Origin: Shigella phage Sf24
Strand: one strand, 5' to 3'
Sequence record: MF327008
Length of the DNA stretch: 64,000 nucleotides
A program made the position numbers and the translations under genes. The notes below the pieces were generated by a model, which worked only from the letters and a program-made list of their open reading frames with translations, made no database searches and was not told the origin of the DNA. This document shows positions 14,683 through 62,793 of this stretch, one piece after another (position 1 is the stretch's first letter; each line of letters begins with the position of its first letter).

Positions 14683-16022
<1,340 letters not shown>

Positions 16023-16045
16023 TATATCATCCTCAGCAATTTGTT

Positions 16046-16079
16046 TTATAATACCATAACAAGCTGAGAAAGTAAACAA
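16046..16079 (-). promoter_or_regulatory. T4-type early promoter driving nuclease-like ORF, dam and 56
   Basis: GTTTAC ... TGGTATTATAA on minus strand. Confidence 0.55.
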
Positions 16080-16115
16080 ATTTATGATAAATATTAATTT
16101 AAAGGAGGACGACGC

Positions 16116-16316
16116 ATGGTACAAAAATTAATGGCAATTGTTAATGCCATCAAAGGTAATAAAAAACGTATAGCTTTTACTATTTCTGCTATGGTAGGAA
16201 TTTTACTCTGGAACTTTATTTTATCACCTGTTGCAATTGCACATGGTATTAATATTCCAGTAGTTACTCTTGATACATTCGTAGATTTAGCATTTGCTTT
16301 AGTTGGGTTAATTTAA
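16116..16316 (+). CDS. small hydrophobic membrane protein, plus-strand gene
   Basis: AAGGAGG 7 nt before ATG; occupies the only non-coding gap between gene 61 and the nuclease-like ORF; ATAAATA late-promoter-like box ~25 nt upstream. Confidence 0.55.
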   Translation: MVQKLMAIVNAIKGNKKRIAFTISAMVGILLWNFILSPVAIAHGINIPVVTLDTFVDLAFALVGLI

Positions 16317-17341
16317 ATCTTAGCATATTTAGATAACCTCATTTTAGCCATCAACCCCTGGGCAATATTATTTTTCATATATTCCATAATTTGTTCAGGG
16401 GTTGCACCTTCCTTTCTAATCATATCATTAACATCTTTTGATTTCCAGGGAGATTTATCCCAAAACATAACTCTTTCTCCTGCATCAACTAATTTAGTCA
16501 TTCGTTTGATAGTGTCAGGGTGACGAGGTTCATTATCTAAAACCCACACTCGTCTATCTTTAAATGGAACAACTTCTAGGTCTAATTGACCACCCGTAAT
16601 AGCTATACCATTTTCAATAAAAAGTGAATCTATAGGTCCTTCTAGAACATATACATCACCATCTTTAACTCGTTCAACACCGTAAATTTTTGTTGCCTCA
16701 GGATAAGCTTTGATGGTGATATACTTTTGTGGAGCATCTTTCTTTAATGCACGTCCTTGAAAAGACTCAGCTTTTCCGTTAGCATTATAAATTGGAATAA
16801 CAAGACGAGGCTCAGAAATTTCCTTTTTGTATGTTCCCGGTGCTATGCTATTAACTAATTTAGGCCATTCGGTTGTAAACCAAAGATATTTCCATTTATC
16901 CTTTGGAATACAACGAGCTTTTACATATTTTATAATTGGATGGTCTTCCGCCAGTTTATCTAATCTAACGCATGACGGAAGAGATTTAATTATTTTCTTC
17001 TCAGGCTGTTTAGGAAGTTCTTTAGGTTTTTCTACTGGACGACTTTTACCTTTTTCTTTTCTTATTTCAAAGATATACTCACGATATAAATCAGGTTCAA
17101 ACTCCTTTAAATATATTCCGATTGGTGCATGATAGTTACAGTTATAACAATGAATATTTCCTTCATTATTATCACCATAATACCATCCACGGGCTTTATT
17201 TTGGTCGGTTTTTGAATCTCCACAAACAGGGCATCTAAACCGCAACTTAAAGGTTGAACTATTATTTACTTGTGTAAATTTAGGTAAATGAGCTAATGCA
17301 CGGTATGCAAACTCATTATCAATCCAAGGTATTGATGACAT
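16313..17341 (-). CDS. 61: DNA primase gp61
   Basis: 342 aa; zinc-binding CPVCGDSK; T4 gp61-like. Confidence 0.9.
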   Translation of the reverse strand: MSSIPWIDNEFAYRALAHLPKFTQVNNSSTFKLRFRCPVCGDSKTDQNKARGWYYGDNNEGNIHCYNCNYHAPIGIYLKEFEPDLYREYIFEIRKEKGKSRPVEKPKELPKQPEKKIIKSLPSCVRLDKLAEDHPIIKYVKARCIPKDKWKYLWFTTEWPKLVNSIAPGTYKKEISEPRLVIPIYNANGKAESFQGRALKKDAPQKYITIKAYPEATKIYGVERVKDGDVYVLEGPIDSLFIENGIAITGGQLDLEVVPFKDRRVWVLDNEPRHPDTIKRMTKLVDAGERVMFWDKSPWKSKDVNDMIRKEGATPEQIMEYMKNNIAQGLMAKMRLSKYAKI

Positions 17342-17343
17342 TT

Positions 17344-17508
17344 TTACTCTTCTTTTTCTTTAGATTCCTCTTTCTTCTTTTTAGGAATCTGTTCAGGACC
17401 TTTATTTACTACAGCACCTGACGTTGTTCCAGTAGAGATATTTTCAGGATTACCACCTGAATCTCCAGCGACCATATCTTCTTTAATAAATTCTTTATAT
17501 GTTTTCAT
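17344..17508 (-). CDS. mini-ORF with capsid-targeting-sequence-like N-terminus MKTYKEFIKE (61.1-position)
   Basis: AGAGG RBS; N-terminus resembles the internal-protein CTS; length 38-54 aa depending on an A-run I could not read unambiguously. Confidence 0.35.
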   Translation of the reverse strand: MKTYKEFIKEDMVAGDSGGNPENISTGTTSGAVVNKGPEQIPKKKKEESKEKEE

Positions 17509-17509
17509 A

Positions 17510-18136
17510 TTAACCTCTATTCATAAAAGCATTAAAAATTTGGTCATCAATAGAAACATTTACTTTAGACTGTTTTTCTGATGGTAATTCATATCCACAT
17601 ATCACAATTTTATGATCAATATCAAAATACACAGAAGCAATATGATTAATGATATTTTCAGTGAAGTCTAAATCGACATCAATATCTTTTTGACCAAAGC
17701 CCAAAGGATAAATAATGCGAGTAATTCGATTATCTTTAACAAAGATTCCACCGACATACTCTGTACTGCGTTTAAAGTCTACACGCCGACGAAATGAAAA
17801 ATATTCAGGCTCTTTATGAGCTCGGCTCATAGGACACAACGAATAACTAGAATAAGAGATGTCAAATCCTACGCCTTCAATATGAGCCAAAGTGTCATGA
17901 TTAAACCAATTATAATCGTACGCCAAATCCATTAGATTATAATATGTAAAAGGCACCGGATTAACATCATTAGTCACAAGCATGTAATTAGCAACTGCTA
18001 TAATTTCATTGTTTTTAACGAATACAAACCGTGATTGATGCGAATGACCTGGACCCGCGTTTTCACGATTAATGATATAACACTGGGCACCTTTATATTT
18101 GTATGTATCTTTGCACTTGTGCATTTGATAGAGCAT
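17510..18136 (-). CDS. hypothetical protein at the 61.2 position (possible AdfA-like anti-DarT factor)
   Basis: 208-aa ORF between 61 and sp; assignment by synteny only. Confidence 0.5.
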   Translation of the reverse strand: MLYQMHKCKDTYKYKGAQCYIINRENAGPGHSHQSRFVFVKNNEIIAVANYMLVTNDVNPVPFTYYNLMDLAYDYNWFNHDTLAHIEGVGFDISYSSYSLCPMSRAHKEPEYFSFRRRVDFKRSTEYVGGIFVKDNRITRIIYPLGFGQKDIDVDLDFTENIINHIASVYFDIDHKIVICGYELPSEKQSKVNVSIDDQIFNAFMNRG

Positions 18137-18957: not shown

Positions 18958-18990
18958 ATTACTATACCATAGTCTTGTCAGCTTGTAAAC
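18958..18990 (-). promoter_or_regulatory. T4-type early promoter upstream of dmd
   Basis: GTTTAC ... TGGTATAGT on minus strand, overlapping end of gene 41. Confidence 0.5.
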
Positions 18991-61303: not shown

Positions 61304-61777
61304 TTATTTGAATGATTTGACGTACTGAATAGAGCCTTTGCTATTCACGAAAGCGATTTTACCATTTTTGTTATACATGGTAGCAGTACGCTGATAGCCA
61401 TAAGTTTGCTTACCAGATTGATAACCAACTAATGCAAAATTATCTTCACCCATTTTATTCTGTTTGGCGCGGATACGTTCATGACCGTGCGCCATAAGAA
61501 CCTTAGCATCGCCAGTTGAAATTGATCTACGAGTTTTTTCATCTTCAACTGTATTAACAAAGTCGTCAAATGAATCAAATTTAGCGTGAGATTTATTATA
61601 CAGTTTTCCATCTACTGCATAATTATATCCCTGTACATCCATCTCAACTTCTGTACCATCATCCAATACAGCAGTGATTTTTTGACCTTTTTTAAATTTC
61701 AAAAGATCAGTAAAAGATTCAGCAATAATTTGAGAATTAATAGCTGCTTCAGTGATAAATTCTTGATATGTTTTCAT
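61304..61777 (-). CDS. internal protein (IP) with capsid targeting sequence
   Basis: N-terminus MKTYQEFITEA matches the T4 IP CTS consensus MKTYQEFIAEA. Confidence 0.75.
   Translation of the reverse strand: MKTYQEFITEAAINSQIIAESFTDLLKFKKGQKITAVLDDGTEVEMDVQGYNYAVDGKLYNKSHAKFDSFDDFVNTVEDEKTRRSISTGDAKVLMAHGHERIRAKQNKMGEDNFALVGYQSGKQTYGYQRTATMYNKNGKIAFVNSKGSIQYVKSFK

Positions 61778-62262: not shown

Positions 62263-62793
<531 letters not shown>

Follow-up and report, generated by a model that had tools for sequence, protein, structure and literature searches.

Gene 61.1 of Shigella phage Sf24 is the subject of this report. The gene was read in a stretch of 64,000 nucleotides (nt) from sequence record MF327008, which is called the window throughout, and direct translation from ATG to TAA gave a product of 54 amino acids (aa), MKTYKEFIKEDMVAGDSGGNPENISTGTTSGAVVNKGPEQIPKKKKEESKEKEE. 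On the minus strand, the genes of the region follow one another in the order helicase 41, dmd, 61.4/tifA, sp, 61.2, 61.1, and primase 61. The start of 61.1 lies 1 nt past the stop of 61.2/adfA, in the same tightly packed operon; the coordinates of all features are collected in Table 1. The 2.65-kb stretch surrounding the gene exhibited 99.9% identity to Shigella phage Sf25 (Tequatrovirus) and 95-99% identity to 463 other T4-type records. The Sf25 ortholog, Sf25_gp164, is labelled 'similar to T4 gp61.1', and T4 gp61.1 itself (P0167) differs from the window protein at a single residue (Y4F, Phe in T4). Moreover, the window protein matched PHROG 1823, the short form, over positions 1-54/54 (E 7e-34), and PHROG 2086, the long form, at C-terminal positions 109-154 of the latter (E 2.6e-16). 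The window open reading frame (ORF) is an intact ortholog of T4 gene 61.1, a previously known gene which is annotated as hypothetical. When the short and long forms of 61.1 were searched against Pfam and NCBIfam, no family was found and sub-threshold noise alone was returned. The original prediction, which was made from the letters of this DNA, had described a mini-ORF whose N-terminus, MKTYKEFIKE, resembles the capsid-targeting sequence (CTS) of the T4 internal proteins (IPs); this N-terminus, the coordinates, the strand, and the placement between 61 and 61.2 were all right when the window was re-read.

Table 1. Features of the 61.1 locus and sequences compared with it (window coordinates).
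Feature	Coordinates	Strand	Basis
61.1 ortholog, complete 54-codon ORF with TAA stop	17344..17508	-	Direct reading, PHROG 1823, Sf25 annotation
Leader residues 1-10, MKTYKEFIKE; CTS-like propeptide with I-K-E gp21-type site at its end	17479..17508	-	IP comparison
N-fist-like module, residues 11-38, DMVAGDSGGNPENISTGTTSGAVVNKGP; homologous to gp23* 66-93	17395..17478	-	BLASTP, hhalign, PDB search
Tail residues 39-54, EQIPKKKKEESKEKEE, and stop; Lys cluster, then variable hydrophilic end	17344..17394	-	Family alignment
Purine tract AAAAAGAAGAAAGAGGAA; natural 1-nt indel site	17365..17382	-	Sequence reading and T6-type variant
GAGG Shine-Dalgarno sequence of 61.1	17514..17517	-	5 nt 5' of start, within the final adfA codons
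61.2 = AdfA (anti-DarT factor A), upstream neighbour	17510..18136	-	Pfam PF23813 (E 5e-137); PMC9391042
DNA primase gene 61, downstream neighbour	16313..17341	-	Its ATG lies 2 nt past the 61.1 stop
Sigma-70-like early promoter TTTACA-17-TATAGT with TG, upstream of dmd	18961..18989	-	Motif reading
IPIII internal head protein (157 aa, MKTYQEFITE...), in-window comparator	61304..61777	-	Motif scan
Late promoters TATAAATA upstream of the e-ipII-ipIII unit	62771-62778, 62784-62791	-	
gp61.1 N-terminus MKTYKEFIKE			
IPII N-terminus MKTYQEFIAE			
IPIII N-terminus MKTYQEFITE			
Sf25 gp268 (IP-like) N-terminus MKTYKEFATE			
Sf25 gp262 (IP-like) N-terminus MKSYAQFLNE			

The larger feature of the gene, which the original prediction missed, is the body of the peptide; as judged from the alignments, it is a copy of the maturation site and the N-fist of the capsid protein gp23. 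Residues 2-38 of gp61.1 aligned with residues 57-93 of Sf25 gp23 without a gap, and 16 of the 37 positions were identical (BLASTP, E 1e-8). When a profile of 46 members of the 61.1 family was compared by hhalign with a profile of gp23 N-termini from seven genera, residues 7-46 of gp61.1 were matched to residues 62-101 of gp23 over 40 columns (probability 98.2%, E 3.5e-14). Furthermore, when the 61.1 family profile was run against all PDB sequences, T4 gp23 chains alone were matched (6uzc residues 58-94, E 1.3e-5). The junction Glu10|Asp11 of gp61.1 aligns exactly on Glu65|Ala66 of gp23, the cut of the prohead protease. The gp23 N-fist and the 61.1 family have the pattern E-x-x-[VI]-[AG]-G-D-x-G-x5-I-[AS]-x-G-x-[TS]-[TS]-G-x-[VI]-x3-G-P in common, and in the sequence scanned, each genome had just two copies of the N-fist motif, one within gp23 and the other within 61.1. 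The N-fist is made up of residues 66-91 of gp23*, the first 26 of the mature protein (PMC7136217). In the unexpanded head, gp23 residues 66-105 are disordered and internal, beside the scaffold (PMC9546572), and after expansion the N-fist is found on the outer surface, where it touches four subunits and helps build the Soc site (PMC9958956; PMC9546572).

All Gly, Asp, Ile, and Pro positions of the module are common to the two proteins, and the cleavage Glu is in register. Past Pro93, gp23 goes on into the N-arm and the HK97-fold body, whereas gp61.1 has a lysine cluster instead and ends 16 residues after the module. No HK97-fold body was found in gp61.1, and it is not a capsid protein. The Pfam model Gp23 (PF07068) spans gp23 residues 88-517; since it begins at residue 88, the 54-aa protein has no Pfam match. 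The labels 'major capsid protein', 'major capsid domain-containing protein', and 'head morphogenesis protein', which some records give to this gene, are over-annotations of a 28-residue similarity. The module was predicted by AlphaFold2 to be disordered, with predicted local distance difference test (pLDDT) values of 43-56. We also compared the 61.1 modules of Sf25, KP27, kaaroe, CC31, Acj61, IME13, and CHI14 with the gp23 N-fists of their own genomes, the Vibrio pair being left out. No covariation was observed over these seven genera (mean identity 17.7 of 38 positions to the gp23 of the same phage vs 17.5 to the gp23 of the others, permutation p 0.42), although the test is low in power since the gp23 N-fist is nearly invariant; within that limit, there was no sign of co-evolution or gene conversion of the module with its own gp23.

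The likeness of the leader to the CTS, which the original prediction had noted, is real and specific. The leader is identical at 8 of 10 positions to IPII, IPIII, and Sf25 gp268 of the same phage type, the differences from IPII and IPIII being found only at positions 5 and 9, and its DNA is identical to that of ipII/ipIII at 26 of 30 nt. When 142 kb of this genome type were translated in all six frames and scanned for the motif MK[TS][YF]x[EDQ][FVLIM]xxE, it occurred five times, and each occurrence was the start of an ORF (IPII, IPIII, gp268, gp262, and gp61.1). As reviewed for the Mullaney-Black experiments, IPIII needs no more than its first ten residues to be packaged, and mutagenesis of the IPIII CTS assigned targeting mainly to residues 4 and 7 and processing to residues 8 and 10 (PMC9026906). 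At all four of these positions (Tyr4 and Phe7 for targeting, Ile8 and Glu10 for processing), gp61.1 has the same residue as IPIII. The CTS has been described to encapsidate virtually any attached protein (PMC7697877). A separate observation concerns metagenomic relatives P0040, P0053, and P0058, in which a second segment, with the CTS-like start M-x-E-V-x-x-F-K-x-F-[VM]-E-G, is present after the lysine cluster; they look like a fusion to, or the adjacency of, a downstream CTS-bearing ORF.

The putative cleavage site is conserved across the family. Glu was found at the position equivalent to the gp23 cleavage site (P1) in 172 of 173 distinct 61.1 family sequences, and the P3 residue was L/I/M/F/V in 167 of the 172 Glu-bearing sequences, in short and long forms alike. 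This family-wide hydrophobic-x-Glu is the pattern of gp21 sites, and cleavage of gp61.1 at it is predicted.

The gene is kept widely and under constraint. At least 1000 public contigs carry the exact window protein. The ratio of nonsynonymous to synonymous substitution rates (dN/dS), computed over 12 diverged short-form orthologs, was lowest in residues 11-38 (0.07), intermediate in the leader (0.17), and highest in the tail (0.30); these values are rough because dS was near saturation. 61.1 is under purifying selection. When 1.84 billion representatives were searched with the family profile, only 50 clusters were obtained, all with members of 50-251 aa, and the family shows two architectures. 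Besides the short forms, there are long forms of about 125-165 aa (about 155 aa in many genera), in which a helical N-domain of about 100 residues precedes the module and the K/R tail (KP27, L005:2144-2632; CC31, L010:877-1341; Acj61, L011:868-1347; CHI14, L013:877-1344; XZ1, L008:39414-39893 on the minus strand). The N-domain of the long forms carries the motif W-x-A-[YF]-x3-I-I-D-x2-G ... F-H-x2-[VI]-R, and several long forms end in a conserved ...KRKR-x-K-[VI]-N-L-x-K-L. A K/R cluster after GP-x3 was present in all family members. AlphaFold2 modelled the long form (alignment A4) as a helical N-domain of moderate confidence with a disordered module (pLDDT 64.6, predicted template modelling score 0.38); since a Foldseek search of this model against PDB returned nothing below E 6.9, the fold of the long form gives no clue.

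61.1 stands directly upstream of the primase gene in T4-type phages, Karamvirus CC31, Acinetobacter phage Acj61, Tulanevirus IME13, and Winklervirus CHI14, and one or two small ORFs separate the two genes in RB49-type kaaroe and Slopekvirus KP27. By tblastn, a 61.1 relative was found in 1492 phage records, vs 1630 records with a near-full-length gp23 segment including the N-fist. The gp23 matches of cyanophages, ViI-like phages, and rhizobiophages start past the N-fist, and these groups were absent among the leading 61.1 matches listed; the comparison of the two sets of records is approximate and was made with no formal test. 61.1 is present in most T4-like (Straboviridae) records. Two observations on unusual database entries were made along the way. 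A 537-aa archaeal 'diphthine--ammonia ligase' (P0175) shares a 90% cluster with the 54-aa phage protein, almost certainly through a clustering artefact. P0018 and P0039 are gp61.1-like with several residue types systematically swapped to F/I/L (e.g. MKIFKEFIKEDMVVGDLGGNFENIF...), and they probably come from error-ridden or recoded assemblies.

Considering the leader and the gp23-like body together, we propose, with a probability of roughly 45%, that gp61.1 is a passenger of the prohead core which would be cut by gp21 after Glu10, releasing a 44-residue, 4.6-kDa N-fist-like peptide from the full-length 5.9-kDa form. What we have observed is the ORF with its conservation and selection, the match to the CTS, the homology to gp23 in register, and the hydrophobic-x-Glu site throughout the family; that the protein enters the prohead, is cleaved there, and yields a peptide with one of the fates below is what we infer from these data. 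That gp61.1 gives rise to a targeted and cleaved peptide, as the original prediction had suggested, is plausible and has a better footing than that prediction could give it. The protein would be made from the early dmd-61 transcript and persist into late infection. The leader would then draw it into the prohead scaffolding core, as is the case for IPI-III, possibly with help from the gp23-like segment. There, gp21 would cut after Glu10, in exact register with Glu65|Ala66 of gp23, and the species expected from this cut would include DMVAGDSGGNPENISTGTTSGAVVNK. The released peptide, predicted to be intrinsically disordered, may remain with the DNA and be injected, leave through the capsomer pores as scaffold fragments do, or bind to the shell. 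Pores of 14-17 Å are present in unexpanded heads and are thought to be the exit for scaffold fragments (PMC9546572), so the peptide may not stay in the head. Injection of the peptide with the DNA, which the original prediction had raised, is speculative.

If gp61.1 belongs with the packaged IPs, which its leader resembles, it would be an unusual member. In common with T4 IPI/IPII/IPIII and the IP-like ORFs, it has the decapeptide MKTY-x-EF-x-x-E with the targeting and processing residues and the gp21-type site at positions 8-10; likewise, the T4 61.1 RNA is early and the gene is dispensable in the laboratory. In contrast to these proteins, gp61.1 is far smaller (44 aa after the predicted cleavage), and its body is a conserved segment of a capsid protein, whereas that of the IPs is polymorphic and anti-restriction. 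It is encoded in the replication gene cluster with no nearby late promoter, not at the ipI or ipII-ipIII loci, and it is present across genera, unlike the poorly conserved IPs. T4 peptides II and VII, small products of gp67/gp22-type core proteins, are likewise cut by gp21 after Glu inside the prohead, and some of this material is retained. These peptides are acidic and derive from late, essential scaffold-core proteins, whereas gp61.1 is expressed early, is dispensable, and resembles a capsid protein. The gp24 propeptide MAKINELLRE|S, which is removed by gp21 (PMC9546572), resembles the gp61.1 leader in its 10 residues and in the arrangement hydrophobic(4)-x-Glu(6)-hydrophobic(7)-hydrophobic(8)-x-Glu(10), but gp24 is a full HK97-fold shell protein and has no N-fist.

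Several observations weigh against the proposal that gp61.1 is packaged and cleaved. The early promoter upstream of dmd is likely the source of the 61.x transcript, and no minus-strand late promoter TATAAATA was found between 17508 and 55758, a distance of about 38 kb; the IP genes of this phage type all have such a promoter no more than about 1.2 kb away. The T4 61.1 RNA is classed as 'early', as are the T4 ipI/ipII/ipIII RNAs (PMC9697503 supplement). Since the ip RNAs are early too, early transcription does not exclude packaging. A time-course proteome of T4 lists gp61.1 as NA, not detected (PMC9697503 supplement), although cleavage at Glu10 would make the main tryptic peptide semi-tryptic and could thus account for its absence from a standard tryptic proteome. 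In T4 CRISPRi-ART, 61.1 was scored 'Not Fit', as fitness on laboratory E. coli did not suffer from its knock-down (PMC11879866 supplement); this result counts weakly because the IPs are equally dispensable, and dispensability in the laboratory fits any accessory role. The predicted mature peptide of the window has an isoelectric point (pI) of 5.0 and is slightly acidic despite its Lys cluster, whereas IPs are basic; the T6 form and those of other genera have mature peptides of pI 8.3-10.3.

Further points on the same side come from the family and from published work. The CTS-like leader is not family-wide and is absent from the long forms of many genera. In the leader of Escherichia phage CLB_P2, a Dhakavirus (MKSFKEVMNE), Val occupies targeting position 7, whereas IP-like ORFs of this phage keep MKTYNEFLNE and, from an internal Met, MKTYQEFSKS (L039:11327-11950, L039:9062-9352). 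Since the CLB_P2 leader has diverged and its IP-like ORFs have not, the leader does not strictly covary with the CTS, and this drift lowers our confidence in targeting outside the T4 genus. Within the module, His72 and Tyr74, which are invariant in gp23, are replaced by Ser/Ala and Gly in the 61.1 family, so gp61.1 may not bind the partners of the gp23 N-fist. In the literature searched, no virion, prohead, or cleavage record for gp61.1 was found, and the T4 head structure papers (3.3-3.4 Å) describe no extra N-fist-like density in the passages searched (PMC9546572, PMC7136217). The name 'gp61.1' occurred there only in gene tables and was absent from the review of T4-related genomes, the T4 head reviews, and the SPN3US/T4 processing paper; nor was 61.1 found in the main text of the HIDEN-SEQ transposon-library study (bioRxiv 10.1101/2025.11.20.689424). 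No statement on a function, a CTS-like leader, or an N-fist homology of 61.1 was found in this literature, which did not cover two key reviews, so that a prior mention is possible.

A bolder version of the proposal, which we regard as doubtful, is that gp61.1 supplies a free 'N-fist' in trans. It would be a separate-gene fragment of gp23 that is loaded into the core by a leader derived from the gp23 junction, thereby linking the CTS to the gp23 maturation site. After the gp21 cut, the peptide would do a job of which the gp23 N-fist itself is incapable, either docking on the shell or scaffold, with an effect on expansion timing or head geometry, or being injected as a capsid mimic. A side observation concerns the three kinds of propeptide: the IP CTS (MKTYQEFIAE|), the gp24 propeptide (MAKINELLRE|S), and the end of the gp23 propeptide (AFGSFLTE|A) have a common hydrophobic/Glu spacing (L002:8581-10146, L002:10230-11513, L003:17610-18417). 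Because gp61.1 ties the CTS to the gp23 junction in register, the comparison suggests that the CTS may descend from the capsid protein's own maturation site, although the decapeptides alone give no statistical support.

Although T4 head assembly is among the best-studied assembly pathways, no function has been assigned to this widely conserved gene of 54 codons. The CTS is in wide use in vaccine and delivery-vector work as a means of loading T4 heads with foreign proteins. If gp61.1 is targeted and cleaved, it would be a new component of the T4 prohead core and show that, in nature, part of a capsid protein can be maintained as a gene of its own, and it would suggest an origin of the CTS in the gp23 maturation junction.

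Among the alternatives, the one that survives best, although we hold it to be unlikely, is that gp61.1 acts in the cytoplasm as a mimic or decoy. An early soluble copy of the gp23 tip and junction would tie up a host or phage factor by which nascent gp23 is otherwise recognised, such as a defence protein that senses capsids, a host protease, EF-Tu, or the chaperonin, and the leader would be a mere homolog of the gp23 propeptide end. Early transcription with no late promoter fits this alternative, as does the occurrence of long forms that have no CTS. 61.1 is also located within the dmd-tifA-sp-adfA cluster, which Srikant et al. described as an anti-toxin-antitoxin island, the remaining genes of which they consider 'attractive anti-toxin candidates' (PMC9391042). 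Like dmd, tifA (61.4), and adfA (61.2), it belongs to this early operon, is small, and is dispensable on laboratory E. coli, as anti-defence genes are. In addition, the N-terminal quarter of gp23 binds EF-Tu and triggers Lit (PMC3014915). However, 61.1 is unrelated to these neighbours in sequence. It occurs in most Straboviridae, fixed by the primase gene, whereas dmd, tifA, and adfA are lineage-restricted and patchy between genera, as counter-defence genes are; IME13 has 41-61.1-61 with none of the three. The neighbourhood is the sole support for an anti-defence role, and there is no homology to any named family. The lack of covariation with the gp23 of the same genome also speaks against a decoy, and the near-invariant hydrophobic-x-Glu site would have no obvious role in the cytoplasm. 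A cytoplasmic mimic of the capsid tip would be a new kind of phage decoy, beside the known anti-toxin genes. As for the particular case of a Gol/Lit mimic, it was set aside because the Gol segment presumably starts where the gp23 similarity stops (Pro93).

More doubtful still is a factor that acts in trans on the capsid lattice or its assembly. In this case, the free N-fist-like peptide would bind gp23 or the gp22 scaffold, by capping N-fist docking sites before expansion, by filling sites that have no N-fist in cis, or by competing with the gp23 N-terminus for the scaffold, and would thereby adjust the stability of the shell, the formation of Soc sites, or the length of the head. The module keeps all Gly/Pro/Asp/Ile backbone positions of the gp23 N-fist, and the family is apparently found in the same phage groups as a recognisable gp23 N-fist (the 1492 and 1630 records above). 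The N-fist touches four subunits and takes part in forming the Soc site (PMC9958956; PMC9546572), and head length is affected by the way in which the gp23 N-terminus meets the scaffold (PMC9546572). Nevertheless, the T4 head papers at 3.3-3.4 Å describe no additional peptide in the passages searched (PMC9546572, PMC7136217), and the sites adjacent to the vertex are already covered by the gp24 N-terminus (PMC9546572). The gp23-specific residues His72 and Tyr74 are not kept in gp61.1, the module does not covary with its own gp23, and knock-down caused no fitness defect.

It is improbable that gp61.1 is a replication accessory, namely a lysine-tailed, DNA-binding partner of the primase-helicase whose gp23 likeness is a relic of an old duplication. 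The position upstream of primase 61 and downstream of helicase 41 is kept in seven genera, the 2-nt spacing of the genes suggests translational coupling, the K/R cluster is conserved, and expression is early. Under this alternative, the constraint would be misplaced, as it was strongest on the gp23-like module (dN/dS 0.07) and not on the basic tail (0.30). Furthermore, the protease-type site is conserved, and no match to a known DNA-binding or replication family was found. The T4 primosome has been reconstituted in the absence of gp61.1.

The original prediction had been unsure of the length of the ORF, 38 or 54 aa, and had pointed to a run of A with a rare AGG codon behind it. In frame, the codons of the tail read CCT AAA AAG AAG AAA GAG GAA TCT AAA GAA AAA GAA GAG TAA. 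The ORF reads straight through to 54 aa and nothing in it yields a 38-aa product; there is no in-frame AGG, and the AAA-AGG belongs to the +1 frame. Of the explanations offered at the time, a reading artefact accounts for the ambiguity. The comparison with T4 and T6 that had been recommended gave an intact gene in T4, with Y4F only, and a 1-nt deletion in the T6-type gene, while the ambiguity supposed for the window itself was not borne out. When one G is deleted from AAGAAGAAA[G]AGG, exactly the 62-aa T6-type protein (P0002) is obtained, ending ...PKKKKRNLKKKKSKNVINTLD and overlapping the start of gene 61. Since this single deletion reproduces the T6-type variant, the earlier confusion mirrors a natural indel polymorphism. 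Both frames of the purine tract are lysine-rich, and further length variants of 59 and 68 aa are known (P0182, P0185). The variant tails stem from a fixed 1-nt indel and not from a two-frame product; the purine tract is a hotspot of natural indels and not a site of programmed frameshifting.

In the zero frame, AAA is followed by GAG, a common codon, and no hungry codon is present for a +1 frameshift; the RNA fold around the purine tract was no better than that of shuffled sequences (z -0.83), and an Rfam search of the same region gave no match. The presence of the purine tract AAAAAGAAGAAAGAGG, the T6-type deletion with its 62-aa product, and truncated variants in single metagenome assemblies (P0017) might be cited for a programmed +1 frameshift, for gene decay, or for truncation of the ORF to 38 aa. 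These explanations have a negligible chance and are ruled out for this window by direct reading, given an identical 54-aa protein on so many contigs and purifying selection over the full length (dN/dS 0.07-0.30).

Two further genes of this phage type lie on the far side of the primase gene. Just downstream of it, a 66-aa ORF, Sf25_gp162, which is a predicted membrane protein, is found at 16116-16316 on the plus strand, and it adjoins Sf25_gp161, a 'putative effector protein', at 15462-16124 on the minus strand. The insert with gp161/gp162 is presumably absent from the T4 map.

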